From Candidatus Bathyarchaeia archaeon (GTDB taxonomy: Archaea; Thermoproteota; Bathyarchaeia; Bathyarchaeales; Bathycorpusculaceae): 64,000 bases of DNA. This document shows positions 8,018 to 51,462 of this stretch, piece after piece. Positions within the stretch are counted from its first letter, which is position 1; each line of letters opens with the position of its first letter. The position numbers and the translations under genes were made by a program. The notes beneath the pieces are model-generated. The model was not told the origin of the DNA, made no database searches, and worked only from the letters and a program-made list of their open reading frames with translations. The stretch is taken from NCBI GenBank assembly GCA_050012255.1, contig JBEKHN010000012.1, positions 1 through 64,000 on the forward strand, read 5' to 3'.

Positions 8018-8096
8018 TGGCGGGCCCGGAGGGATTTGAACCCCCGTTCTCCGGCTCCGAAGGCCGACGCCTTGATCCAGACTGGGCTACGGGCCC
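8018..8096 (-). tRNA. tRNA-Arg(TCG), CCA encoded
   Basis: Reverse complement GGGCCCGTAGCCCAG...CGGC-CT-TCG-GA-GCCG...GGTTCAAATCCC...GGGCCCGCCA folds as a cloverleaf. Confidence 0.95.
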
Positions 8097-39037: not shown

Positions 39038-39733
39038 CTACTTCTCTTCTTTCAATGCGAGAGGGTATATTTCCTTAGCCACGTACTCCAAGTATGGCTC
39101 CTTCTCTGTCAAATTGAATATGGTCACGGATGCGTCTCGAGTTATGCCCACGACATAGCCATGCTCCCTTGACCTTGCAACTACGTACCACAGGTCACCA
39201 TGCTTGCCATAGTCCTCGAAAAGAGAAGTGTTTGTGAGGTCCGGCCCGTACAGAGACAGTTTGTCGATGTTTGGAATATCCACGTTGTCAAAGAATGTTA
39301 TCTTTGTGTCCTCAGGGTTCTTTAAGTGAAACTCTTTCAATGTTTCAGGAGAGATTCTAGCCTCCAGTACCCCACCTGCTTTTTCAAACAGTACTTCACT
39401 AAGCTTGTTTGCTATGAAATTGGCAACACGCTTCTTTTCAACTATGGTCAAGAACGTAGTACCTTCGCGTTCAGCGAAGCTAAACATTGCCTCAACTGTT
39501 CGAGGGGTAGGCAAGATCTTGCCCCTGTGGAAAACCTGAGTGACATAGTCGTGAGAATAGATGCCTCTCAACATGTTTTCCTTAGGAAGGAGACCAGTGA
39601 CCTCGGTTATGAGCGCAAGTTTGTAGTCTCCCTCTTCATAAGCCTCTTCAGTGCGATACCCTTCAAGTCTTGAAGCGATGTCCGCCACGGCAAGAGGCTC
39701 AGTCAGTTTGAAAACCTTACCAGCAACAACCAT
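39038..39733 (-). CDS. Archaeal hypothetical protein
   Basis: 231-aa ORF with host-like codon usage. It would be divergent from the SMC operon at the empty insertion site. Confidence 0.75.
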   Translation of the reverse strand: MVVAGKVFKLTEPLAVADIASRLEGYRTEEAYEEGDYKLALITEVTGLLPKENMLRGIYSHDYVTQVFHRGKILPTPRTVEAMFSFAEREGTTFLTIVEKKRVANFIANKLSEVLFEKAGGVLEARISPETLKEFHLKNPEDTKITFFDNVDIPNIDKLSLYGPDLTNTSLFEDYGKHGDLWYVVARSREHGYVVGITRDASVTIFNLTEKEPYLEYVAKEIYPLALKEEK

Positions 39734-40144
39734 TCTCGAACCCCAAGCCCTTAGTCTAGAAGGTTCTGCTTATGAAACTTTACGCTTCCAAACCTAAGAA
39801 TGCAGATTGCGATCCTTGACTCCACCTATATCTCACTGAGCATTTGTCACAGTGGCAATGGAGCTCTGTTTGTTCTTAACATAGGTTATTAGTCAACGCC
39901 ATGAACATCCATGCCGCCCATGTCCATTGCAAACGTGCCACGCACGGACCTAATCAAGTTCGAAAAGCAATCTCGAAGGATTGTGAAAATATCTTGGACA
40001 TCGAAGGTATCGAAATCCTCAGGAAAGCAGAATGCATGACCTAATCTATTTGTTGCAAAACTGTACTAATTGTTTTAATAAGAGTTATTGCGCTTTGAAA
40101 ATACACATGAACAACGTAAAAAGGTTAAAACATTTATGGGCCCT

Positions 40145-40294
40145 TATTCCGCGCGGAATATGAGGTCCTGGTCAGATGTCTCGAGAGTCCCCCTCGGATC
40201 CGAGGGGCCGCCTCGGAATAGGATCCGCGCACCTCTGAATCAGAGGGGGATAAGCTGTCAATCGGAGGGGGAGCCCCTCGAAATCAGAGGGGGA
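40145..40294. repeat. Palindrome and iteron cluster: three AATC(A/G)GAGGGGGA copies at 22-bp period plus two perfect palindromes
   Basis: Copies at 40238, 40260 and 40282. Palindromes TATTCCGCGCGGAATA (40145-40160) and CCCCTCGGATCCGAGGGG (40190-40207). Confidence 0.9.
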
Positions 40295-40308
40295 GAACTC
40301 TGCGCGCG

Positions 40309-40554
40309 CTATAGGTATCTTCTGCCTTTCAGTCTCCGACGCCACTGACTGTAAACCTCAATACTGTCCCGCATAGCATCATAGTTATTTCTCATCCGGT
40401 ACAGAGTGTTCCTAGCAGTCGTATAGTGAACTTTTATCGTGTCGGCAGCGTGCTTCAACGGGTTCTTGTACCCCTCATTCTGGGCCTTGATGATCTCCTC
40501 GATGAGTTCCCGCTGCCTCTTAGTCCACAGCAACCTGTTCGACAAAACGACCAT
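40309..40554 (-). CDS. Small HTH DNA-binding protein
   Basis: WTKRQRELI...LKHAADTIKVHYTTARNTLYR HTH-like pattern. Confidence 0.65.
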   Translation of the reverse strand: MVVLSNRLLWTKRQRELIEEIIKAQNEGYKNPLKHAADTIKVHYTTARNTLYRMRNNYDAMRDSIEVYSQWRRRLKGRRYL

Positions 40555-40752
40555 CCCGACCTCTAATGGCTATCTATAGTACATGTACCACGTTTTAAGA
40601 GTTTCTGTACCTGTCAAAACCAAACGTTAGATACTTTGAACTTCTACTCCCTGAGCAAACGGTCTTGAAGGTCATGTCCTTGGCGCCTCTGTCGAGAGCT
40701 GCTCGAGTTTCGCCTGGACTTGCTTAATCTTTTCAGAGGAATTATGCACTTG

Positions 40753-41028
40753 CTACCCCCCTGAAATTGGACTTTTCTGTCCGCTTAGCTTCTCAGCCTG
40801 CAACGCGTTGAGCCTCGTCACATTCATCAGGATCACTTCCCCACCTGCACGCATGCCGGACGTCGACGCGCAGACGTCTTCGTCTTTGTCTCTCCACTCC
40901 TCGAGTTTGTCCCATTCCCCTGGGGGCAGGGTGAAGAGGATGAAGACGCTGCGAGGTATGTCGAAGTGTCTTTTTTCTACGAAGGGGTCTTTGATCTTCG
41001 GTCCCTTCTTCTGGACCGCTGCGCGCAT
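40753..41028 (-). CDS. Hypothetical protein; the frame extends upstream into an RHH-like segment
   Basis: In-frame upstream sequence reads QVCCTVSKELLQDF...LSEAVSDLMRAAV but has no canonical start codon. Confidence 0.55.
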   Translation of the reverse strand: MRAAVQKKGPKIKDPFVEKRHFDIPRSVFILFTLPPGEWDKLEEWRDKDEDVCASTSGMRAGGEVILMNVTRLNALQAEKLSGQKSPISGG

Positions 41029-41336
41029 GAGATCACTGACTGCCTCTGATAGCCCTCCCGGATAGTGCGCATAGACGACGCGGTCCTGGAAGTCTTGAAG
41101 CAGCTCCTTTGAAACCGTGCAGCAGACCTGGGCCTCTCCTTTTAAACTGTTCTTCTTTGCTTCTTCAATGGGTTTACGGATTCCAGCTGCAAGGTCATGT
41201 AGGAGCTCACCCTGATTAGGGCGCGCGTTTTCTCCCTCCTATAGAATACTTCAAAGATATTCCCAACAGTAGTAAAAGGATAATGCTAATATATAAGAAT
41301 ATCCCTAGAGTATATCGGTGAGTCGGTGTGCAGGCC

Positions 41337-41495
41337 TTGCCGGTAAAGTTTCAAATGAGCGTCGTCCTCGTTGGAAAAAGCTTGAAAGTCACGATTCCCA
41401 AGGAGATCTGTGAGTACCTCGGTCTGAAGAAAGGCGACGTCGTGAGCCTGTGGGCCGACAACAGTCACATCATCATGGAAAAGAGGGAGTCCTGA
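41337..41495 (+). CDS. AbrB/MazE/SpoVT-family DNA-binding protein (52 aa)
   Basis: Hand translation MPVKFQMSVVLVGKSLKVTIPKEICEYLGLKKGDVV has the classic G.SL.VTIPK....LGL..GD motif. Confidence 0.85.
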   Translation: MPVKFQMSVVLVGKSLKVTIPKEICEYLGLKKGDVVSLWADNSHIIMEKRES

Positions 41496-41749
41496 CGTCC
41501 GGGGAAGTCACGGAGAACTTCGACGTAAAAGGGCATAGAACGGCCTTGTTTTCACAATTAGCCCACGTTCTAGTCGTCTCCAAGAACAAATTTGATAAGG
41601 AGTGTGCTGCCAACCGCGATCGACAGGCCTGGGGAAGACTCATCGTCACAGGGATTGAGGCGTACGCGAAGCTGCTTGAAACCGTTCAACTTGACGTCTT
41701 GGAGAAGCGTGTAAGCCAGCTTGAAGGTCGCGAGGGTGAAGCTAAATGA
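41450..41749 (+). CDS. Small helical protein with a C-terminal coiled coil (terminase-small-subunit-like by inference)
   Basis: LLETVQLDVLEKRVSQLE tail. The start is uncertain. Confidence 0.55.
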   Translation: MGRQQSHHHGKEGVLTSGEVTENFDVKGHRTALFSQLAHVLVVSKNKFDKECAANRDRQAWGRLIVTGIEAYAKLLETVQLDVLEKRVSQLEGREGEAK

Positions 41750-41952
41750 GGAGTAAGGAACTGGAGAAGCGCCTCGAGAAGCTTGAGAAAACGGTGAAGG
41801 TCAACGACAAGCCAAACATGATCCTGATCCGAGGGGAATGGTTCCCCCTCGATAATCGGCCTGAGACCATCGAAGCGGCAAAGACGACGCCTATCCCCTG
41901 GTACGGCCGCTGGTGGAGGGAGAACAACCCCCCGATAAAGGAGGAACCGTGA
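41746..41952 (+). CDS. Small hypothetical protein
   Basis: LEKRLEKLE N-terminus, with ATGA overlap with the previous gene. Confidence 0.6.
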   Translation: MRSKELEKRLEKLEKTVKVNDKPNMILIRGEWFPLDNRPETIEAAKTTPIPWYGRWWRENNPPIKEEP

Positions 41953-41953
41953 A

Positions 41954-44056
41954 ATGAGTACAGATGTAGCGATCCATTTGGTTGCGTATGACGAAGCTTC
42001 TGAAATAATTGAGCAGATGGGGTCTAACCTTTCCGCAACTTTCACTGACATTGGAGGGCGAACGCAAGACTTAGTGACAACTACTGATGGCGCGACTTCC
42101 AAGATTACAGATGACTGGAACCAGGTCAATGGTGCTGGACAGAATCTTAAGAAGACCCAAGAAGACATGCAGAGCAGTACAAGCGACACAGCAATGAGCA
42201 TGAACAGGCTGGCGCAATCCGGTGCCAACCTCTTCATAAGTTTTGAACGTGTTGAAAACGCTCAGGTAATGGTTGACAGGGCAAACCTGATGGTACAGCG
42301 AAGCACGCAAACCTGTGAAAAAGCTCAAACCGCGTACAACGACGCCGTTGCAAAGTACGGGCCGAACAGTGCCGAGGCGAAAGCCGCTCTTGACAGGCTT
42401 GCTATCGCCCAGGAAGCCGTTGTGGTCTCGCAGGAAAGGGCCGATATGTCAGCGAGAAACTTCAACAACACGATAATGTCGAGCGCACTGATGGTCATTC
42501 CCAGTTTCATCTCAATCATTGGAACCGTCAACAGTCTCCTGCCTGAAACAACCGCGGAAACTTTCAGTTTAGGCGCCGCCATAGACTTTGCGACTGGGCC
42601 CATCGGATTAGCGATAATCGCTGTCAGCGCCATGACCGCTGCTCTCGTGCTTATCCCAGGCGCCATGGACGCGGTTGTCAACGCGTTTGAAACTGCTGGA
42701 AACTTTTTCGTAGGCATCGCAAATGACATAGGCAATGCTTGGGGCGGCTTCGTCGGACTCTTCACAGGCGGAAACCAGCAAGCCGAAAAGTCAATAAATC
42801 CTCTGACGGCCTCTGTTGAGGACTACACGAAAGCCGTAAAAGACTCGACAACTGCGACTGATGATTACGTAGGGTCTATTAACACTTTGAACTCTACCGT
42901 CCAAAACCTATCAACAACTGTCCAAGGCGCGGGACAGGTTTGGGGTCCTTTTTCGCAAGCGGAAGAGACTGCGAGGCGGACAACGGAAGACTTCACGGTA
43001 AACGGACAAAAATATATGGCGGACATGGAGGAGACGTGGAGGGAAGCGCAAGCATCAGCTAACGTTAACCTTGGACAGATCAAGGCAGAATATGAGGAAG
43101 AGATAGATACTGGCCAATTTACAAAGGCAACCGATACCCTTCTCAAGTTCGCGGAACAGTATGGCTTACTCGTGCCTGAAGCTAAAAAAATCGTCTTGGA
43201 CTTCAAAGCTGTTCAAGCATCGATTCCAGAGTCAATTGAGGAGCAGCTGATTGGAAAGGCTCAGGCGGATCTTCAGGCGTTTCAAGACTGTGTAACAGGC
43301 AAGTTCGCAGGCATGCAAGGCGATTCTTCAGGCTACGTGAAACAGCTTGTTACCGATACGAATGATTTGATCAGCAGGGGACTCGTGGGCCAAGCTCAAG
43401 ATAACATTGCAGCCTACGTGAAATGCGCGACTGACAAGCATGATACACTCGTCTCCGATATCGAGGCTGACTTGGCAAAGCTGAAGGTGGACTACGCGGC
43501 CGGTGCCACTGATCTTGCGCCGATGATAAAGCAGCTTGAAGAGTTTAAACTTGCAGCAACATTCGGCGAGCCTGGGGTAGACATTTTCGCTGCTATAAAA
43601 CTGGCAGGCACCACGGCCAGTGAAGTTGCTGCTGAAACAGAAACGGCAACGACGCAGATCACAGCTTCGTTCCAAGGCATGGCGAACAATGCGATCTTGC
43701 ATGCTCAGAGACTTCAGGATAGTCTTGTCGGACAGAGCATCTGGACTGACATGCTGACTAAGATGGAAAGTACGACGGAGAAATCAGTCGCTAAGATCCA
43801 GGGGCAGTTCCAGATGCTTCAGCCAGAAGGCCTCATCGGAGGCGGCTTCGGCGTTCCAGAAGCTCTCCCCAGGGCCGGAGGAGGAAAGGTGATCAACGCG
43901 CCAATCAGGATCACTATTGAAGGAAACGCTGATAGGGCGACTGTTGATTTGATGAAGAAAGAGATTTTTGCGGCTTTGAAGTCAGTTGTTGTTGAGCCTA
44001 CAAGCAGCAATGCGCCCACTACGTCGAAGAGGATAAGGCAGGGAAGTACGTTCTAG
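41954..44056 (+). CDS. Tail tape-measure-like protein (700 aa)
   Basis: N-terminal I.L.A.D.AS motif, Ala/Gln/Thr-rich helices, central hydrophobic GPIGLAIIAV segment, LVGQSIWTDM motif and C-terminal I.I.I.G.AD. Confidence 0.78.
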   Translation: MSTDVAIHLVAYDEASEIIEQMGSNLSATFTDIGGRTQDLVTTTDGATSKITDDWNQVNGAGQNLKKTQEDMQSSTSDTAMSMNRLAQSGANLFISFERVENAQVMVDRANLMVQRSTQTCEKAQTAYNDAVAKYGPNSAEAKAALDRLAIAQEAVVVSQERADMSARNFNNTIMSSALMVIPSFISIIGTVNSLLPETTAETFSLGAAIDFATGPIGLAIIAVSAMTAALVLIPGAMDAVVNAFETAGNFFVGIANDIGNAWGGFVGLFTGGNQQAEKSINPLTASVEDYTKAVKDSTTATDDYVGSINTLNSTVQNLSTTVQGAGQVWGPFSQAEETARRTTEDFTVNGQKYMADMEETWREAQASANVNLGQIKAEYEEEIDTGQFTKATDTLLKFAEQYGLLVPEAKKIVLDFKAVQASIPESIEEQLIGKAQADLQAFQDCVTGKFAGMQGDSSGYVKQLVTDTNDLISRGLVGQAQDNIAAYVKCATDKHDTLVSDIEADLAKLKVDYAAGATDLAPMIKQLEEFKLAATFGEPGVDIFAAIKLAGTTASEVAAETETATTQITASFQGMANNAILHAQRLQDSLVGQSIWTDMLTKMESTTEKSVAKIQGQFQMLQPEGLIGGGFGVPEALPRAGGGKVINAPIRITIEGNADRATVDLMKKEIFAALKSVVVEPTSSNAPTTSKRIRQGSTF

Positions 44057-44352
44057 AGACAAGTAGTCGTGTCAACACTCAGTATCTCGTCTTCTTCAAA
44101 GTCCGCCGCGGACCGGTTCCTGAGCAACTGTTCATAGGCCCTCGGATAGCTGATTTGCAAGTCTCTGAGACGCCCGTTGTTGGCGTCTTTCCTGTTTTCG
44201 AAGGTCCCAACTACTTTGCCATAACTTTTGGGCGGCCGCTCGCCTTGGCGTATGATCCAGTAGTCGCAGAAACCAAAGGCCTCGCATTTCAACACGTAGA
44301 CTCGGTCGAAGAATTGCGAGATTTCCTCAAGAGTTGATATTCGGCGCTGCAA
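44053..44352 (-). CDS. Hypothetical protein
   Basis: Last gene of the helicase operon. Confidence 0.55.
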   Translation of the reverse strand: MQRRISTLEEISQFFDRVYVLKCEAFGFCDYWIIRQGERPPKSYGKVVGTFENRKDANNGRLRDLQISYPRAYEQLLRNRSAADFEEDEILSVDTTTCL

Positions 44353-44365
44353 GTTTTTCGACGTA

Positions 44366-44866
44366 TCACTCGCCTCCTCTAAGTCTAGCCCGTCGCGCGC
44401 GCTCTTTCGCCTTCGCCTCTTCTCGGATTTCGGCCTGATGGTCCTTGGACTCCTTCACGAGTTTGAGCGCGCACACGTATCCTGCGCGCGCGGCCTCGGC
44501 ATCCTGACAAACTTTGACTGTTTCATTGTGGCTTTCATGAGCCCTATGGAGTCTTCGAGCGTTCTCAATCACTTCAGTTGTTGAGGGCCCTTGTTCCTGT
44601 TCTCCCTCCGGCTGTGGCTTTTCGAAAGCGAAAGTTGAACCTAGAGTCTCAGAGACTTCGGGCGGCGGCGCCGGAAAACGCTTCTCATATAGGGCCCGTA
44701 TACGCTCTCGCTCTTCCGGAGTTGCGATTTGAGGCCTAGCTTGCTTTGGCACTTTTGAGTCTAGCGCGCGCCTGCATTTGTTGCAGCCGCTGGGACATTG
44801 ACCTATCAGAGGCGTAAATTCAAGGGCTAAGGTGACCCGGTCAGTTCCAAGTCTCGTTTCATTCAT
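44366..44866 (-). CDS. Hypothetical protein with a CxxxCxxC motif
   Basis: Overlaps the upstream gene and is co-oriented with it. Confidence 0.6.
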   Translation of the reverse strand: MNETRLGTDRVTLALEFTPLIGQCPSGCNKCRRALDSKVPKQARPQIATPEERERIRALYEKRFPAPPPEVSETLGSTFAFEKPQPEGEQEQGPSTTEVIENARRLHRAHESHNETVKVCQDAEAARAGYVCALKLVKESKDHQAEIREEAKAKERARRARLRGGE

Positions 44867-45143
44867 GTTTCAATATCACCTCCCAGTTGCGTAATAGACT
44901 CAATTGTTTATCGTCTCCCAGGAGGAGCAGCGTGCAGGGCTTGTGGATCCTGCCGAGGCTGCCCGCCTCGAATCTGACAAGGCGCCCCTTAGCTTCCCAG
45001 CCTGCGCTTCGCACCGTCACCCATCGGCCGACGAAATAGACTAGAAGATTGCGCTCCTCAAAGACTATGACGTCCTTTTCGTACTCTTCTCTTTTGCTTA
45101 TCGCACTGTCCTTGGACAAGGGGATACAGAACCGGCTTGTCAT
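44859..45143 (-). CDS. Small beta-rich (Sm/SH3-like) hypothetical protein
   Basis: VGRWVTVR...AKGRLVRFE pattern, with ATGA overlap with the helicase gene. Confidence 0.6.
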   Translation of the reverse strand: MTSRFCIPLSKDSAISKREEYEKDVIVFEERNLLVYFVGRWVTVRSAGWEAKGRLVRFEAGSLGRIHKPCTLLLLGDDKQLSLLRNWEVILKHE

Positions 45144-46687
45144 GCGTCGTTCAACCTCTTCTCAAGTTCAATTCCACACTCTTCACAGAGGAGGCCCCAA
45201 CTCCCATTACGACAGGTCGCTTGCCATTCCATGCGCCCTCGAAAACCACACGCTACGCACTTGTCCTGATAGTTCATGGTCAGTCGTTCGAGCTTCAGCG
45301 TTTGACTGGCTAGGGCTTCTAAATTGCCTTCACTACCTTCACTTTGTTCACTTCCTTCACTCTTTAGCCCTTCTTCAGAGGCTAATTTTTCCTTAGTCCG
45401 TGAAGGAAGTGAAGGTTGTGAGGGAAGTGAAGGTGTTTCAGAAGGGGGTTCATACCGGGCCTTTAGTCTTTCAATCAGCTTAATGTCCCAGAAGAAGCCG
45501 GACTTACCTCCTCCGAACCGGCACTTCTCAAAGCCCAAAGCGGCGACCTTACGTCCCACTTGAGTGGTCTTCAGCTGCTCCTTCTCTGACAGGCCCACGT
45601 TGAAAGTGTCCGTTATCGCCTGGGTCGACAGCTTTCCTTCTTTGATATCCTTTTCGCATTTGAGCACAGCGTCGAACATCCGTGCCTCGATGCTGGCCTG
45701 CTCCTCGTCCAAGCGGCTCTTTGTGATCTGCTTCATGCAGGTTATGAGGCGGGCCCTTATGTCTTCTGTAGGAGCAACTTGTAGAAGACTCACGAAAAGT
45801 TCAATTACCCGAGCATTTTTGAACTGACCGTTTAGCCAGGACATCTCAAAGAGCCCAGGTTCTTTCGCCAAGTTTTTGAAGCGGTACATCAGCAACCTGT
45901 TTCTCAGGTCCTGGGCCTTCTCCTCGTCTATGAAGAGGTTGATCTGCTTCACGTTCCGTGTCATCGTCGTTATCACGCAGCGGCTTTGAAGCGTAGAGGC
46001 GAGTTCCTGAGTTCCGGCGAGAACCTTGAAACCGAAGGTGTCGAACATGGCGATCTGAGGGCAACCCTCTTCGACCTTTTCTATTCTGATCGCGTACTGA
46101 CCTTTCCGGTAGCCGCTGTTAAGCAAGGCAAGTACTTCGACCATTGCTTCTCGGTTGTAGATCTCACATTCGTCCAGCAGAAGAACGGGATGCCAGGCCT
46201 CAAGGGCCCGGAACAGGCTTGCAGCACTCATTGAAGAAGCTATGACTCCTCGGTAACAGATTCTACCGAAGCATTCGAGCGCGCGGGTTTTGCCGCTTGC
46301 CATGGGCCCGAGGAAAAAGGCGTAGGGCACAACGGTGAACTCTTCAGTTCTCCAAGTGGCCAGGGTGAAGGCGGCGTAAACATCGTAGAAGAGGTCGTTC
46401 GCAATGTCCAAGTGTTCAACGTAGAAGGCCCGGACGTCAGAGAACAATTGGATCTCGCTTTTATAGTCTTTCGGCCGGGTTGCAGCCGGCCAGGGAAGGC
46501 GCTTCAGAGGAACATACTCTTCTCCCTCATGATAGAAATGATGTGGGTCGCTGGGAGCTTCAAACTTGCTCTCGTTTCTGTCGAAGATGACATAGCACCC
46601 GTTCGTTACCTGTTCAAAAATGACGGTTGGAAAAGCGAAGCCAGGCGTCGACGTCGGCTTGACTTTCTCCTCCTTCTCTTTCGCCAC
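45140..46687 (-). CDS. Replication helicase/ATPase (DUF3631-like AAA+) with C-terminal wHTH and zinc finger
   Basis: Walker A GPMASGKT, Walker B LLLDE, LLNSGY, SRC arginine finger and CxxC...CxxC. Confidence 0.8.
   Translation of the reverse strand: MAKEKEEKVKPTSTPGFAFPTVIFEQVTNGCYVIFDRNESKFEAPSDPHHFYHEGEEYVPLKRLPWPAATRPKDYKSEIQLFSDVRAFYVEHLDIANDLFYDVYAAFTLATWRTEEFTVVPYAFFLGPMASGKTRALECFGRICYRGVIASSMSAASLFRALEAWHPVLLLDECEIYNREAMVEVLALLNSGYRKGQYAIRIEKVEEGCPQIAMFDTFGFKVLAGTQELASTLQSRCVITTMTRNVKQINLFIDEEKAQDLRNRLLMYRFKNLAKEPGLFEMSWLNGQFKNARVIELFVSLLQVAPTEDIRARLITCMKQITKSRLDEEQASIEARMFDAVLKCEKDIKEGKLSTQAITDTFNVGLSEKEQLKTTQVGRKVAALGFEKCRFGGGKSGFFWDIKLIERLKARYEPPSETPSLPSQPSLPSRTKEKLASEEGLKSEGSEQSEGSEGNLEALASQTLKLERLTMNYQDKCVACGFRGRMEWQATCRNGSWGLLCEECGIELEKRLNDA
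45327..45433. repeat. Two inverted arrays of four 9-bp iterons (CCTTCACTN) inside the helicase gene; putative origin
   Basis: 45327-45362 forward and 45398-45433 inverted, separated by a 35-bp spacer. Confidence 0.88.
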
Positions 46688-46721
46688 GGCCGTGCACTCC
46701 CTTGACCCGCGCGTTAGTTTG

Positions 46722-46814
46722 CTATTTTACGGTCCCCTTCAAAATCGCAAGTGCTTCCTGCAGGATCTCTTTCGTCTCCCAGATGAGTTCGCGGAGAGTC
46801 TCACGGTCCGTCAT
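46722..46814 (-). CDS. 30-aa peptide MTDRETLRELIWETKEILQEALAILKGTVK
   Basis: Hand translation, with GGAG upstream. Lies between the RHH gene and the helicase. Confidence 0.45.
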   Translation of the reverse strand: MTDRETLRELIWETKEILQEALAILKGTVK

Positions 46815-46827
46815 TTCGTCAACTCCT

Positions 46828-46974
46828 TCACTCGTTCAAGTCTTTGGCGATTTTTTCTCTGACTGTTTGTCTCAGGAAGTTGCTTCTGTCGAGTCCTTGT
46901 TTCTCCGCGTACTTGTCGATTTGCTCGATAATTGCGTTCTTCTCTTTGAACCCGATAACCTTGTCCGCTTTCAT
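46828..46974 (-). CDS. CopG-like ribbon-helix-helix protein (48 aa)
   Basis: Hand translation MKADKVIGFKEKNAIIEQIDKYAEKQGLDRSNFLRQTVREKI. Confidence 0.8.
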   Translation of the reverse strand: MKADKVIGFKEKNAIIEQIDKYAEKQGLDRSNFLRQTVREKIAKDLNE

Positions 46975-47056
46975 CGCGTTTCAACTCAATTTAAAAGCTT
47001 ATAACGGAAGAATCGTATACGGTTTAGTGGAACTCGGTTCCAGTAGAGGACGCTAT

Positions 47057-47476
47057 TTGAAAATCAGATGGCAAACTCACCGAAAGTGGCTCTCTCAAAC
47101 TAAGGTCTTTGAGGCTTTCAAGAATGAGAAAGGGGCAGTTGAGGCAAAGACCTGGTCTGAGTTGGAGGCTAAGGTTCCAAGGGCTACTCTCTCCCGAACT
47201 CTGAGGGATTTGATGAAGGAAGGTAACGTGCAAGCCAGTTTACGCCTTGGCAAGAATGGCAAACTAGAAACCGTCTACAAACTAGTGCACGAGTGGCAGA
47301 CAGTCAAACATCACGTGGTTCAAGCCTCCTACAAGGGGAAACCATTCGGAACGTATGAAGGGATGATTTACATGAGACGGGGAAAACTCCATTGCAGACT
47401 GCCTGAAGACGAAAAGAAAAGATTATTGGATGACCAGAAGAGGGCCCAAGGGGCCAGGTCCACTTCTGAGATCTAA
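47057..47476 (+). CDS. Winged-helix transcriptional regulator
   Basis: KTWSELE..VPRATLSRTLRDL...G.V......VYKL. Divergent from the RHH gene. The start is inferred. Confidence 0.8.
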   Translation: MKIRWQTHRKWLSQTKVFEAFKNEKGAVEAKTWSELEAKVPRATLSRTLRDLMKEGNVQASLRLGKNGKLETVYKLVHEWQTVKHHVVQASYKGKPFGTYEGMIYMRRGKLHCRLPEDEKKRLLDDQKRAQGARSTSEI

Positions 47477-48562
47477 CTACTCGCTTTCTTCTTTCAGTCT
47501 CCTCTCGAGTTCTTCAACCCTTTTGAGCAGCCCCTCGATCGCGGCTGCCTTGCGCAGGTCCTCCTGGCCTAGGGCCTGGCCGCCCTGGAGGTTCAAGAGC
47601 TCGATAATGCCGGCGTCGGTCAAGAGTTGTCTGAGCTTTTCGTCCTCGGGCATGTAGGCGCCGTTGAACCTCAACTGGTGCCCGGTCATTTTGTCGATCA
47701 GGTCGTCGCTGACCTTGTTTCTCAGCTGCGCGCTGAACCAGAGGCGGCAACAGTGAAAACTCAGCCTTTTTCCGTTATCTGTCAACCCGGCTTTTGCGCA
47801 TAGGGCCTTGAAAATCTTGTTCGGCTGCCCATTCTCAACGTGTTTCTCCTTGTACCCTGGGAACAGCCAGGGACCCTTAACGGTTGCCACGTACGTCTTG
47901 AGCATTGCTTGAACTTCAGGCGTCAAGACTAGGAGGATCTCACTGTTTGTTTTAGGCCTCACCAACTCGACAAATTCAAGCCTTACGCCGTCAAGTTTTC
48001 CCTCGAAATCTGTGACCTTCAACCCTGCAACCGTGCTTTCATCTTGACCCATTAATCCGAGGGCCAAAACACACTTGTCACGCAGGTCCGCGAGGTCGAA
48101 TAACCGCCCTATCTCAGGGCCCATCAGCTGGTGTTTCTTCCTTTCAATCCGAGGCCGCTGCATCCGCACGTCTTTCTTTCGGAATTTTCTAAGGCTAATC
48201 GGCAGATTGTAAAAAGCGAAGAAACTCTGCACCACCGTCACCGCGTGTTTGGCCGTCAACTGACTCAGCGTCTTCTCCTTGAACCGTCCAGTCGTGCCTC
48301 CGGCTCTGCCCTTGACGCTGCCCGTCAGTTTCGCCTTGCTTTCCATGAGTTGTTGATAGTACGCGAAGACCCTGCGGTTGTACGTGTCTGATTTGTCAGG
48401 ATCTTGTAGTAACTGGCGTTGCTCAGCGATCATCTCGGTTCCAGTTTTGCCAGTGAACTGCTCGAAACGTTTAAAGGAGGACTCATACGTTTGTTTCGTT
48501 GCGATAGAGGTGAAAGTCTCTAGCCATTCTCGCACTTTCGGGTCGTTTGTCACGCACTTCAC
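47477..48562 (-). CDS. Tyrosine recombinase/integrase
   Basis: RDK.VL, RPKT, FHCCR (HxxR), MTGH and AY catalytic Tyr. The box I Arg position is Asp. Confidence 0.92.
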   Translation of the reverse strand: MKCVTNDPKVREWLETFTSIATKQTYESSFKRFEQFTGKTGTEMIAEQRQLLQDPDKSDTYNRRVFAYYQQLMESKAKLTGSVKGRAGGTTGRFKEKTLSQLTAKHAVTVVQSFFAFYNLPISLRKFRKKDVRMQRPRIERKKHQLMGPEIGRLFDLADLRDKCVLALGLMGQDESTVAGLKVTDFEGKLDGVRLEFVELVRPKTNSEILLVLTPEVQAMLKTYVATVKGPWLFPGYKEKHVENGQPNKIFKALCAKAGLTDNGKRLSFHCCRLWFSAQLRNKVSDDLIDKMTGHQLRFNGAYMPEDEKLRQLLTDAGIIELLNLQGGQALGQEDLRKAAAIEGLLKRVEELERRLKEESE

Positions 48563-48670
48563 CGATAGAAGTGTTATAACAAACGGACATATATGCTTTA
48601 CCTATTTGAAAGTGTAAGAATAAGAGAATTTTCACCTTTATTATCTACCACACACTGGGAAAAATCATCA

Positions 48671-50635
48671 ATGCTGATTCAAGAGGTAATCCTCGAGAAC
48701 TTCATGAGTTACGAGTACGGCAGAGTGCCCTTTAAACCAGGCGTGAATGTTGTCTGTGGACCAAACGGTTCGGGAAAGTCGTCCCTTCTTCTGGCCATAT
48801 CCGTGGCTCTAGGGCAGTCTTACACTGAACGCTCTAAGAAACTGAGCGACCTCATACGTTGGGGCAAAGACCAAGCCCGGGTGACCTTGGTCCTGGATAA
48901 CACCAGGAGGGGAAAGAACAGGCCAGTGCCAAGATTCAACAAAGACCAGATTTTTCTCACACGCGTCCTGAGGCGTGACGGAACGTACTGGTTCTCTCTT
49001 GAAAACCATGCCGTCAACAAGAACGATGTTGAAAGACTCTTGGGAAGGTTGGGCGTTGACCCGGACAACATACTCATCATAATGCATCAGAACATGGTTG
49101 AACAGTTCACTGTGCTTTCTACCCAGGAGAAACTGCGAATAGTAGAAGCAGCAGTTGGACTCGAGCCCTATCGTGAAAATGTTTTGCAAGCACAGAAAAA
49201 GCTGACCCGAATACTAAGCCAGGAAGAGTCGATGAGTAAACTCTTGGAGTCAGCCGAGCAGACATTGAATTACTGGAGAGGACAATACGATAGGTACCAA
49301 GAGAAAAAGCAGTTACAGTCGAAAAGAAGGTTCCTAGAAAGAGAGCTAGCGTGGGCCGAAGTTGCAAGAAGGGAAGAAACGGTAAGGCAGCTGGAGGCTG
49401 AGAGAAAAAAGCAACAAGGCATTCTTGACCAGATCGAAGAAAAGACAAGGTCGGCAAAGGGTCACCTGCAGACTCAGGAACATGAGCGTGTAAAGCTGAA
49501 GGACGACTGGAGACAACTTTTTGACGAACGCCTGAGCTTCGAACGTCAGAAGGCAGGAAACTCATCGACCGTTCCGCTGTATGAACAACTTTTGAGAGAA
49601 ACAGCGACGCTAGAGATGCTCAGTCAAAACCCTGGCAAGGATACAACTCTTGAAACTGGGCAGGTTTCGAGGAAAACAGTGCAGATCAAACTCCTTAGGA
49701 GTGAAGAACTCAAAGAGTTGATACAAAATTCGAAAGAACACGCCTCAAAATTGGACGCTGAAATAGAAAGAAATCAGATGAAGACGAGGAACTGGGAAGA
49801 AGCAACCGAAAAGGTGAGTACTCAAATCTTGAACCTTCGCATCGAATTGGCGCTAATGCAATACCGAACGGAGAGCTCCGCGGCCAACGTCAAAGAACTT
49901 GAAAGATCCCTGAGTGAGGCGAAAACTCGTCTGGGTGAAACAGTAAAGAAGGCTGAGCAAGTCGGAGCCAGAATTGCAGTAATAGAGGAATTTGGCAAAA
50001 TCCTCGACGAGATACGCGTCACAGAAGGACACTTGGCTGCACTTTCAGATGTCTCAGAAGACATTGAACGCATGTACGAGTCCTATTCAAAACTCTATCT
50101 TGAACTGAAAGAGAAAGCCCAGCTTGTTGCCGAAAACCGTGAAAAAACACTGGAAGAGGTGAAGACGAGAATGCAGTCTTGGCGAACAGTCATTGGCAAC
50201 CTTCTCGACCACGTCAACTTGGAGTACCAGAAAACCTTAACCCAAGCTCAAGCCGTAGGAGAGGTTAGACTCGCCAACGGCCATGACATGGAGACAGCCG
50301 GACTCGAAATTCTCGTGGGGTTCAAAGGCGGAAGACCAGTCCCTCTTGACGCTTACACGCAGAGCGGTGGAGAAAGAACAACCGCAACGATGAGCTTTCT
50401 GCTGGCCTTACAGCAACACGTCCGTTCCCCGTTTCGCGCCGTCGACGAATACGATATCCACATGGACCCGAAAAACCGTGAACTCGTCGCTCAGATGCTC
50501 GTCTCAAGAGTTAACGATTCAAACGCACAGTACATCGTGATAACTCCAAGCCAAGTAACGTTCACAAAAGAAGGAACAAACATAATCACTGTTCAAAACA
50601 TTGAAGGTAAATCGATAATCAGAGAGGTGGCGTAA
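48671..50635 (+). CDS. Short Smc5/6-related SMC ATPase (ClsN/Arcadin-4-like)
   Basis: LENFMSY, GPNGSGKSS, coiled coil and QSGGER...LQ....PFRAVDEYDIHMD. The start at ATG 48671 is inferred. Confidence 0.88.
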   Translation: MLIQEVILENFMSYEYGRVPFKPGVNVVCGPNGSGKSSLLLAISVALGQSYTERSKKLSDLIRWGKDQARVTLVLDNTRRGKNRPVPRFNKDQIFLTRVLRRDGTYWFSLENHAVNKNDVERLLGRLGVDPDNILIIMHQNMVEQFTVLSTQEKLRIVEAAVGLEPYRENVLQAQKKLTRILSQEESMSKLLESAEQTLNYWRGQYDRYQEKKQLQSKRRFLERELAWAEVARREETVRQLEAERKKQQGILDQIEEKTRSAKGHLQTQEHERVKLKDDWRQLFDERLSFERQKAGNSSTVPLYEQLLRETATLEMLSQNPGKDTTLETGQVSRKTVQIKLLRSEELKELIQNSKEHASKLDAEIERNQMKTRNWEEATEKVSTQILNLRIELALMQYRTESSAANVKELERSLSEAKTRLGETVKKAEQVGARIAVIEEFGKILDEIRVTEGHLAALSDVSEDIERMYESYSKLYLELKEKAQLVAENREKTLEEVKTRMQSWRTVIGNLLDHVNLEYQKTLTQAQAVGEVRLANGHDMETAGLEILVGFKGGRPVPLDAYTQSGGERTTATMSFLLALQQHVRSPFRAVDEYDIHMDPKNRELVAQMLVSRVNDSNAQYIVITPSQVTFTKEGTNIITVQNIEGKSIIREVA

Positions 50636-51462
50636 TGCAGTCCAGAAAAGCACATGAGAAGCTCGGCAGAGAGAAGCTTCAACGCATCATCGAAACGTGC
50701 AGGTCCGTTGAAGAACGATCGCTTGACCCGTTCTTGATAGACCTTAAGGAGAACATCAGTACGGTCAGAGAATACTTTCCAGAATGGAAGATTCCAGAAG
50801 ACCTTTGCTTGGACGCTGAAACCATACACCGCCTAGCCTCCGTAGTCAAGCTTCAAAGCGAGTGGGTCAAACATCGGTCAACCTCACTCTACACAGACCC
50901 CTTTGTTCTGGAAGAAAAACTCAGGCGACTAGACAAGGAGGAGATCGTTAGAACCTTTATCAAAGCTTGGCATCCATTGGTTGAGTGGGAGCAGATATCA
51001 CTTCACAGCCTGGCCGAAGCCGTCAGGTACTGGAACAGTCTGGTGCCACTGAGAGAAAGGTGGAAGGAAGCCCCTCCGGCCGAAGTTGGCTCAGGCTCAG
51101 CAACGCGCGAAGAGCTTGTTCGCGAAAGGATTCTGCGAGATAAAGCCTTCTCCGAGGAACTCGAGAACTTCTGGCTTGAATTGAAGAACGTCGTCGCCCA
51201 GAAGGGTCAGAACGGAAAGATACGATACTGGGATTTCATCGGCGCAGAATCTTACGAGGAAACCGTGAACAGAGCTTTCATGACAAGCTTCCTCGTCACA
51301 TATGGCTATGCCACCTTGGAAATTCACCCGTTGGAAGAAGAAATGTATATTGTACCCTACCAAAAACTGCTGGTTAAGACGGGAAAAGAGCAGCTGGTGT
51401 CAATACCCATCTCAGTTTCAGCGACTGACTGGCAGAGGTGGAGGCGAGGAGAGCTGAAGTGA
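50635..51462 (+). CDS. Kleisin (ScpA/Nse4-like) subunit, putative
   Basis: LDPF.IDL N-terminal motif, C-terminal wHTH-like SFLV..GY..L, translationally coupled to the SMC gene. Confidence 0.6.
   Translation: MQSRKAHEKLGREKLQRIIETCRSVEERSLDPFLIDLKENISTVREYFPEWKIPEDLCLDAETIHRLASVVKLQSEWVKHRSTSLYTDPFVLEEKLRRLDKEEIVRTFIKAWHPLVEWEQISLHSLAEAVRYWNSLVPLRERWKEAPPAEVGSGSATREELVRERILRDKAFSEELENFWLELKNVVAQKGQNGKIRYWDFIGAESYEETVNRAFMTSFLVTYGYATLEIHPLEEEMYIVPYQKLLVKTGKEQLVSIPISVSATDWQRWRRGELK

Follow-up and report, generated by a model that had tools for sequence, protein, structure and literature searches.

The stretch analyzed here, called the window, comprises 64,000 nucleotides of a Candidatus Bathyarchaeia archaeon (contig JBEKHN010000012.1 of NCBI GenBank assembly GCA_050012255.1, positions 1 to 64,000 of the forward strand) and carries an integrated element at 40077-48626. 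This is a plasmid-like integrative element of Bathyarchaeia that acquired the operon of a viral tail tape measure protein (TMP), an anatomy that we hold with high confidence. Its backbone is made up of a tyrosine integrase, a P-loop replication protein and small regulators, and the captured operon runs AbrB-p99a-p68-TMP. An earlier reading of the window, made from its letters (the original prediction), had described the block as a phage-satellite-like island acting at the tail or DNA-injection step of a head-tail virus. A discrete element, a real TMP and a loose recurrence of the arrangement bear this out in part, and no helper virus was found in the genome. A satellite-like element whose own TMP would act at the tail of its helper is the role that we favor, tentatively, as we would put its chance somewhat short of even.

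Borders, tape measure gene and backbone of the element

The borders of the element were set with three genomes of the same genus as the window (G001, G007 and G010; loci L080, L082 and L081) in which the site is empty. The window aligns to all three up to position 40082 and again from 48619, with an overlap of 6 bases between the two alignment blocks, and an 8-bp direct repeat, AATAAGAG, is present at 40077-40084 (attL core) and at 48619-48626 (attR core). The empty-site alignment and the flanking AATAAGAG copies therefore define an 8,542-bp insertion with a duplicated 8-bp core, and the discrete block that had been predicted between a 231-amino-acid (aa) host gene and an SMC-like gene is recovered with the same coordinates. 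In the one public sequencing run with the element (assembled contigs only, possibly the source of this DNA), a single contig spans the whole integrated element, and no joint of a circular or excised form was seen.

The TMP gene (41954-44056, + strand) encodes a full-length protein of 700 aa that was assigned from a match to PHROG 34082 together with the synteny of its family. The match to PHROG 34082, 'tail length tape measure protein', is weak (1.7e-5) and covers residues 30-165; no Pfam family was found, and a profile search against PDB sequences returned coiled-coil noise only. The family comprises 34 proteins among 5.8 billion, and its named members all come from Bathyarchaeia. For synteny, the open reading frames (ORFs) of 44 loci with TMP relatives (4 genome loci and 40 IMG/VR loci) were clustered. 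Cluster C1 precedes the TMP homolog in 42 of these loci, and most of them have C2, C6 and C3 upstream and C5 downstream in constant order. Within virion modules the TMP homologs precede C5 or C47/C48, and portal and capsid genes lie further upstream. A representative locus includes a portal protein (C19, Pfam 1.1e-14), a major capsid protein (C10, PHROG 2.6e-15), a scaffold or decoration protein (C13) and a 'tail completion or Neck1' protein (C2, PHROG 4.1e-14); from their position only, C6 would be the tube protein and C3 and C1 the chaperones. Given this constant synteny of the homologs, the TMP family takes the standard TMP place in a module of siphovirus type. The position holds for the family; the window copy itself has no such neighbors. 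In head-tail viruses the TMP sits inside the tail tube, and its length sets the length of the tail. On the evidence of sequence, the 700-aa protein is a TMP derived from head-tail viruses, and the gene would have come from head-tail viruses of the same host group.

The reading frame of the window TMP is uninterrupted over 700 codons and is coupled to the upstream genes, and its alignment to relatives covers 100% of its length. Of 70 positions with a conservation of 90% or more among the other 20 members of the alignment it keeps 64, and those members themselves keep 60-100%. The closest sampled viral TMPs are 48-62% identical to it. Its sisters in the TMP tree (65 rows, quick IQ-TREE) are two viral contigs (L006 and L008) and two proviruses (L002 and L003) found in one metagenome-assembled genome from peat, and it is 83 aa shorter than the TMP of the sister viruses L002, L003 and L007 (700 versus 783 aa). 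The TMP of viral contig L008 (9989-12155) is split into two ORFs that overlap, of 140 and 589 aa, and the split could be a frameshift or an assembly error.

Hidden Markov models (HMMs) of 55 virion clusters were run on all six frames of the element (18 HMMs in a prior run), and only the TMP and an integrase-like match were found. By these HMMs and by Pfam and PHROG scans, the element has no capsid, portal, terminase, tube or neck genes, so that the claims of a TMP as the only virion gene and of a block free of capsid, portal, large terminase and tube genes were both upheld. Deletion scars and virion-gene remnants, the marks of a decayed prophage raised as a concern in the original prediction, were looked for in the six frames with the same 55 HMMs and none were found; the sole damaged-looking frame of the element is an RHH-like ORF, which is not a virion gene.

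The backbone is characterized by a 515-aa P-loop protein (45140-46687, - strand) in which Walker A (GPMASGKT) and Walker B (LLLDE) motifs can be read from the sequence; it also has a winged helix and, at its C terminus, a zinc ribbon. At least 202 relatives were found, the named ones all from Bathyarchaeia and none with a Pfam domain; the protein matches the HMM of this family (D0) at 1.1e-260 and is 51-71% identical to its relatives in alignment A2. The locus also defines, in this way, a large unannotated family of replication proteins. In 21 other loci the P-loop gene is typically preceded by a gene of ~130 aa (D2/C45), and in 14 of the 21 it is followed by an integrase of ~400 aa. Three distant relatives, 29-42% identical, come from IMG/VR contigs, and on two of these contigs there is a portal gene. 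The AlphaFold2 model of the protein is mediocre (pLDDT 67, with core residues 121-246 below 50). Foldseek gave no match at E <= 0.001, its best being to the NrS-1 primase-polymerase, in the helicase region (E 4.6e-3). VIA-align gave the Orc1/Cdc6 winged helix (Z 7.4), MCM (Z 7.0) and SaPIbov1 Rep (Z 6.2, aligned over 256 residues), and PDB sequences searched with a profile yielded no match. All of these structural matches lie within the noise band of the tool, and we therefore infer from motifs, domain order and context that the protein is a replication initiator or helicase. Judged by its relatives, it is a backbone marker of small integrative elements of Bathyarchaeia.

The tyrosine integrase predicted at the right end was confirmed there (47477-48562, - strand; PF00589, 2.9e-9) as an intact protein of 361 aa encoded 57 bp from the right border. 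It matches the HMM of recombinase cluster C29 (3.9e-8) and not IntE1 (cluster D1), the usual partner of the P-loop protein, and, unlike IntE1 in related mini-elements, it is not downstream of the replication gene but at its opposite end. The IntE1 family gave 18 matches, all in compact elements and 0 in virion-module loci, in a search that covered the loci fetched through L116, where proviral integrases may lie beyond the 10-kb flanks. Compared with the replication-plus-integrase mini-elements of Bathyarchaeia, the window element has the same P-loop family and, in two loci, the same 81-aa partner (see below). It differs in having no D2/C45 gene and no downstream IntE1, and in having another integrase and the added TMP operon. 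By these gene families the backbone is that of a small plasmid-like integrative element and not of a provirus.

Tape measure genes in other compact elements

To follow the TMP beyond the window, its family profile was run on 401 Bathyarchaeia genomes (E <= 1e-10). Twenty-eight genomes matched and 20 places were fetched, comprising 15 multi-gene virion modules, 4 places with the TMP alone or with C1 only, and 1 uninformative contig of 4.7 kb. Four further bounded elements carry a TMP, one of which (L004) was already known from the initial scan. The first, L004, measures 10,728 bp between 20-nt repeats at a tRNA-His gene and contains C3, C1, the TMP, a p99a homolog, a MuF-like piece, an IntE1 integrase and a 550-aa protein that shares a C-terminal zinc-ribbon motif with the window replication protein (hhalign E 5.7e-4, probability 29.5%). 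The second, L110, has 9,341 bp between repeats at a tRNA-His gene, with an integrase, a p99a homolog, the TMP, C1 and AbrB, and has a second mini-element beside it in tandem. L106 was recognized as an insertion relative to a related genome (10,329 bp; TMP, D5_N/DUF5906 primase-helicase and integrase), and L109 as 10,026 bp between repeats of at least 42 nt at a tRNA-Met gene (D5-type primase-helicase and TMP). No capsid, portal or terminase match was found in any of these four. At another place, L104, the TMP lies beside a truncated integrase, and the locus looks decayed. The second mini-element at L110 (14639-17900; genome G417, contig C130) is minimal, with an integrase and a 628-aa protein at the same tRNA-His gene, and a degenerate third copy of the att repeat adjoins it.

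Recurrence, which had been proposed as a check, was thus found in a loose form: four more bounded TMP elements of 9.3-10.7 kb exist, their backbones are not homologous to each other, and the exact gene set is that of the window alone. From the sequences, at least three kinds of replication protein are present among the TMP-bearing elements. Of the other 12 proteins of the island, only AbrB and p99a have homologs within 10 kb of the 44 TMP homologs, both of them in L004.

The TMP tree suggests that such solo genes arose repeatedly. Six solo TMPs correspond to six label changes in the tree, the well-supported branches force at least five origins, and every solo TMP adjoins viral TMPs. As a control for ascertainment, limited to one gene class and drawn from the same set of genomes, the Neck1 gene (C2) was treated in the same way: it was solo in 0 of its 24 best places, compared to 4 of 19 for the TMP (Fisher p 0.031). 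Eight of the Neck1 places lie beside TMP matches, and the 16 that were fetched comprise 14 multi-gene modules, 1 four-gene partial module and 1 contig end. At L141 (genome G182, contig C22:10000-29000) a four-gene module fragment (clusters C22, C38, C31 and Neck1) has 9.6 kb without recognizable genes downstream and is a probable provirus remnant.

Possible roles of the captured tape measure protein

If the element is a satellite of the kind that we favor, it would stay integrated between its two host genes until a related head-tail virus infects the cell, upon which it would excise and replicate with its own proteins. The element TMP could then enter tails built from helper parts, or compete with the helper TMP for them, and this would yield chimeric tails that carry the element or reduce the number of working helper tails, or do both. 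What the TMP does, and with it excision, dependence on a helper and packaging, is inferred in this scheme. A broader version, which we hold with less assurance and regard as rather doubtful at present, is that Bathyarchaeia harbor a class of integrative satellites of ~9-10 kb that were built convergently on at least three unrelated backbones of plasmid type (the P-loop replication protein, the 550-aa replication-like protein and the D5-type primase-helicase), each with a helper-derived TMP and with or without chaperone-position genes. Such a class, if real, would be the first satellites of archaeal head-tail viruses to act at the tail, and the size of its members, about 1/4-1/3 of the viral contigs of 30-48 kb, would hint at packaging as multimers or in small heads.

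The layout of PICI and P4 satellites, with an integrase at one end, divergent regulators and a replication initiator or helicase in less than 15 kb, is also that of the window element, with the P-loop protein as its putative initiator or helicase. SaPIbov1 Rep was among the weak, noise-band fold matches mentioned above, which establish no homology at the family level. Unlike these satellites, the window element was not found to encode genes for capsid-size redirection, a small terminase or packaging interference. The closest functional parallel comes from bacteria, where the rebuilding of helper tails by a satellite TMP was shown only in 2025-2026 (PMC12987554; PMC12822802). According to the accessible text of the first report, PLEs of Vibrio cholerae, which parasitize phage ICP1, encode a TMP, a tail assembly chaperone and a baseplate hub; the PLE TMP was shown in satellite virions, the chimeric tails are ~10 nm shorter, and putative tmp genes were noted in PLE-like elements and cf-PICIs (PMC12987554). 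EPIP satellites of Mycolicibacterium, in the accessible part of the second report, also encode a TMP and have longer tails, and the changed tail length was proposed as a means of tail hijacking (PMC12822802). Satellites acting in this way had been thought undescribed in the original prediction, and for bacteria this is no longer so. The window element resembles PLEs, especially PLE11 as far as the available text describes it, in being compact and integrated, with an integrase, putative replication genes of its own, no capsid genes and a TMP that is a diverged homolog of that of the (presumed) helper. It differs in its archaeal host and in being known from genes alone, whereas PLEs have bacterial hosts and a known lytic myovirus helper; it has no chaperone or hub and no sequence relationship to PLEs. 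EPIPs are described as having a small terminase, adaptor, stopper, scaffold and serine integrase as well, whereas the window element has only the TMP and a tyrosine integrase (PMC12822802).

In archaea, the satellites known earlier were pSSVx and pSSVi, to which a preprint, in its accessible part, adds the plasmid-derived SRCE elements and describes plasmid-derived satellites as having arisen convergently on different backbones (10.1101/2025.02.15.638363). They share with the window element a plasmid-type replication module joined to an incomplete helper-derived virion module. They differ in depending on spindle-shaped viruses and carrying a capsid protein and/or an ATPase, where the virion gene of the window element belongs to the tail of head-tail viruses. 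Likewise in archaea, NMV2S was proposed as the satellite of a head-tail virus of Asgard archaea, with a plasmid-like helicase-primase and a small regulator; it is a small circular element of high copy number without a TMP, and the available part of the report mentions no virion gene (10.64898/2026.08.12.739948). The main text of a 2024 survey of Bathyarchaeia viruses uses neither 'tape measure' nor 'satellite' (PMC10848311), and a literature search that covered main texts and only a minority of the subscription journals turned up no archaeal element described with a solo TMP.

The window element is therefore a candidate archaeal counterpart of the bacterial TMP-encoding satellites, on genomic evidence only. 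If the satellite reading is true, satellites would manipulate tails in bacteria and archaea alike, having come to do so more than once and on plasmid backbones of different kinds. It would also provide a searchable signature, an att-bounded element of ~10 kb in which a solo TMP accompanies an integrase, a replication gene or both, that could be used to find helper-satellite pairs in uncultured archaea. Even if the TMP operon has no role, the element is a record of viral genes passing into small integrative elements, in a lineage that is abundant in sediment and peat.

Several observations count against a satellite acting at the tail. A search of 100 other genomes of the family did not find the DNA of the element as a whole; besides the AbrB region (see below), only the replication gene in three genomes and a piece of the integrase in one gave matches. 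By sequence comparison the strict gene set is unique to the window: the window replication protein was found within 10 kb of the TMP in 0 of 44 TMP loci, and the TMP in 0 of 24 replication-protein loci. The five bounded elements (8.5-10.7 kb) have only the TMP in common, on backbones that are not homologous, and as these elements were found with the TMP as query its sharing is partly built in. HMMs of the chaperone-position genes C1 and C3 found no match in the window element, so a partial tail pathway of the PLE type is incomplete here; elsewhere, L004 keeps C3 and C1 and L110 keeps C1. No small terminase, capsid-size factor or packaging site was recognized in the element. The branch of the window TMP has a length of 0.56, versus 0.20-0.25 for its sisters from the same node (~2.5x), which fits relaxed constraint as well as adaptation. 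The RHH-like frame at 40753-41238 (- strand, 161 codons in translation) has no ATG, GTG or TTG before codon 71, and hence one gene of the element is possibly damaged.

The host genome was searched too. In this genome (G000; 2.35 Mb, 98.5% complete), a tblastn search with all TMP-locus proteins gave no match for C1-C17, C19-C21 and C23, and in a genome-wide profile search no gene for capsid, portal, neck or the tube and chaperone positions appeared, nor did Neck1. The co-occurring helper provirus that the original prediction proposed to look for is thus not in this genome, and any helper would need to be of outside origin. A lone large terminase was found on contig C3:165998-167473 (L153:9996-11471, - strand; PHROG 2, 1.2e-32; HMM C24, 2e-72); a PHROGs scan of its neighbors found no virion family, and one of them is a glycosyltransferase. 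Isolated virion-type genes are therefore not peculiar to the TMP. The large-terminase family occurs in 172 of the 401 Bathyarchaeia genomes, often in several copies. A k-mer scan of the genome found no CRISPR array. In favor of a satellite, related viruses circulate among close relatives of the host. A stretch of 2.3 kb in viral contig L008, whose TMP (like that of L006) is in the sister clade of the window TMP, is 96.5% identical in its nucleotides to part of contig C6 of the host genome; the stretch is a recombinase-bearing cassette with several copies in the genome. Viruses of the L008 type thus exchange DNA with very close relatives of the host, and integration here is not implied. The cassette, in which C18 (an ABC-ATPase/GNAT protein) is joined by two tyrosine recombinases (C29), stands at the end of many viral contigs; its positions are L008:16743-20968 and, in the host genome, C6:107109-109453, C7:1-1014, C1:303295-306038 and C32.

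Among the alternatives, the strongest is that the TMP operon was gained by recombination with a head-tail virus or provirus, either illegitimate or site-specific, as could follow a tandem integration, and has no role but is still undecayed. We consider this unlikely, though it deserves serious weight. The gene combination confined to the window, the long TMP branch, the lost start of the adjoining RHH-like frame and the lone terminase elsewhere in the genome all agree with it. L104 would be a clearly decaying case of the same process, the tandem elements at one tRNA-His gene in L110 are an arrangement that favors such recombination, and L004 retains scattered morphogenesis genes (C3, C1 and the MuF-like piece). 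With the nearest viral TMP only 48-62% identical, the true donor is unsampled and capture could be recent. What speaks for a role is the uninterrupted TMP frame, coupled upstream and with 64 of 70 conserved positions kept, the finding of flanking virion-gene remnants in no frame, and at least five independent origins that all ended in elements of 8.5-10.7 kb, at the same time as Neck1 is solo in 0 of 24 places. A decayed provirus is likewise weakened because the backbone belongs to families of small elements, no virion scars are present and TMP elements of similar size originated repeatedly; it keeps some weight because the donor virus is unsampled, one neighboring frame is damaged and a lone terminase is present in the genome.

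It is improbable, in our estimate, that the TMP is instead a defensive decoy, in which a resident divergent TMP, perhaps together with AbrB and p99a, would poison the tails of incoming viruses and protect the host population and the element, which itself would go unpackaged. The TMP is indeed homologous to, and diverged from, the TMPs of viruses that infect close relatives, no packaging or capsid function was recognized in the element, and the p99a family mostly heads cassettes with a weak GmrSD_N match (8e-4) and an ABC-type ATPase that look defense-like. To our knowledge there is no example of a TMP that itself acts as an inhibitor, and a literature search on satellites and tape measures yielded no such case. 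Interference with tail assembly as such is an established defense on mobile elements (PMC11364771), and PLE11 Rta blocks tail assembly of the helper, with escape mutations in the helper TMP (PMC12987554), as stated in the accessible portions of these papers. Against a decoy, a full-length TMP of 700 aa would be costly, and the chaperone-position genes kept beside the TMP in L004 and L110 fit productive assembly better than poisoning. An autonomous virus or transfer element of a new kind, with the orphans p166, p94, p99b and p68 as unrecognized capsid or membrane proteins and a TMP-like protein that delivers its own DNA, is very improbable: seven ORFs of the element have no detectable family and archaeal virion proteins often cannot be recognized by sequence, but the TMP family otherwise occurs in complete head-tail modules with tube-position and neck genes, we know of no role for a TMP without a tail tube, p166, p94 and p99b sit in the replication operon and not beside the TMP, and no orphan recurs in other TMP-bearing elements.

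Other genes of the element and the host site

The ORFs within both operons are tightly packed, with ends that overlap by 4-8 nt, and the operon that runs from the orphans to the P-loop gene converges on the TMP operon. The original prediction of mostly intact and coupled ORFs is supported by these overlaps, the RHH-like frame without an early start being the exception. Just inside the left border, at 40160-40300, three G/C-rich hairpin repeats (CCCCTC...GAGGGG) were identified from direct repeat D3 (copies at 40229-40253 and 40273-40297) and from folding. The DNA fold of 40150-40320 has a z of -2.89, and 0 of 200 shuffles were as stable; this array could represent integrase arm sites, an origin or a packaging signal. 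Nothing in 39700-48700 came near any Rfam threshold.

The small protein of 81 aa that follows (40309-40554, - strand), originally taken for a helix-turn-helix gene, has no significant Pfam match. In L054 and L056 it has homologs (cluster D7; jackhmmer 9e-32 and 3e-33) close to P-loop replication genes, and by this co-occurrence it is a recurrent partner of the P-loop replication family. The ORF listing starts the RHH-like frame at 41028, the resulting part of 91 aa has no Pfam match, and its RHH label goes by the sequence pattern.

The first gene of the TMP operon encodes a small DNA-binding protein of the AbrB/MazE type (41328-41495, + strand), and the predicted AbrB assignment agrees with its Pfam match (PF04014, 9.5e-7). 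Homologs are present in the TMP-bearing elements L110 (62% identity) and L004. The AbrB gene and its upstream region (41233-41484) also have matches of 72-75% DNA identity in G361 (twice), G283 and G401.

The second gene, p99a (41450-41749, + strand), encodes a helical-hairpin protein of 99 aa that AlphaFold2 models as two helices (pLDDT 79.5), and its homologs adjoin the TMP in L004 and L110. Its family gave 25 matches, most with a precomputed PF26457 assignment, and it is found in 27 of the 401 genomes, mostly away from any TMP. The breadth of the family (246 clusters, and the 27 genomes with mostly TMP-less cassettes) rules out p99a as a TMP-specific partner. A recurrent cassette consists of a p99a-like gene, a gene of ~250 aa, a gene of ~190 aa (the weak GmrSD_N match), an ABC-type ATPase of ~210-230 aa and a gene of ~145 aa. 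It was seen at L120:9390-12136, with similar cassettes in L122-L125, L128 and L129, and it occurs in many genomes of one genus; such p99a-headed cassettes may be defense-like. The third gene, p68 (41746-41952, + strand), is a 68-aa orphan whose start overlaps the p99a stop and whose stop lies 2 nt before the TMP start; family scans gave no match, and no homolog was found in any fetched locus.

In the opposite operon, the last gene is p99b (44053-44352, - strand), a 99-aa orphan without a family match whose 3' end overlaps that of the TMP gene by 4 nt. It is preceded by p166 (44366-44866, - strand), a 166-aa orphan with a CxxC...CxxC motif that has no Pfam or PHROG match and for which a protein-atlas search gave no usable match, and by p94 (44859-45143, - strand), a 94-aa orphan without a family match that is translationally coupled to the replication gene. 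The iterons predicted within the replication gene correspond to a real imperfect inverted repeat with GAAGG-type units at 45316-45444 (I1; 45-nt arms, 78% complementary). The same stretch codes for a Ser/Glu/Gly-rich linker of the replication protein, which is variable and of low complexity in the family alignment.

The divergent regulator candidate (46844-47476, + strand) had been read as a winged helix-turn-helix repressor, for which the signal is a weak Pfam TrmB match at E 0.036 over residues 108-133. Its true start is probably downstream of 46844, and no homolog was found in any fetched locus. The 'RHH peptide' proposed at 46811-46984 was less well borne out, as it has no family match and overlaps an ORF on the opposite strand.

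The insertion site is not in a tRNA gene, the only one of the window being at 8018-8096, and in the three empty-site genomes the flanking host genes are ~320-340 bp apart. On the left is a conserved host gene of 231 aa (39038-39733, - strand) that is present in 36 of 41 relatives searched, and the host flank also holds a corrinoid adenosyltransferase (Pfam 5.2e-67). On the right is an SMC-like ATPase (48671-50635; SMC_N 2.2e-40) found in 41 of 41 relatives searched, followed by a kleisin-like host gene (50635-51462) with a weak match to the Nse4 C-terminal domain (3.1e-4). In a comparison of the host site in other genomes (G008:C16, G003:C5 and G009:C14; loci L091, L092, L094 and L095), the same two host genes are separated by 24.5 kb in G008 and by 2-3 kb in G003 and G009, and these inserts hold neither island genes nor virion genes. 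G004 and G005 have these two host genes rearranged. The intergenic site looks variable among relatives. In several genomes of other families the SMC-like ATPase matches as two stretches, and in several genomes its match contains an in-frame TAG, TAA or TGA.

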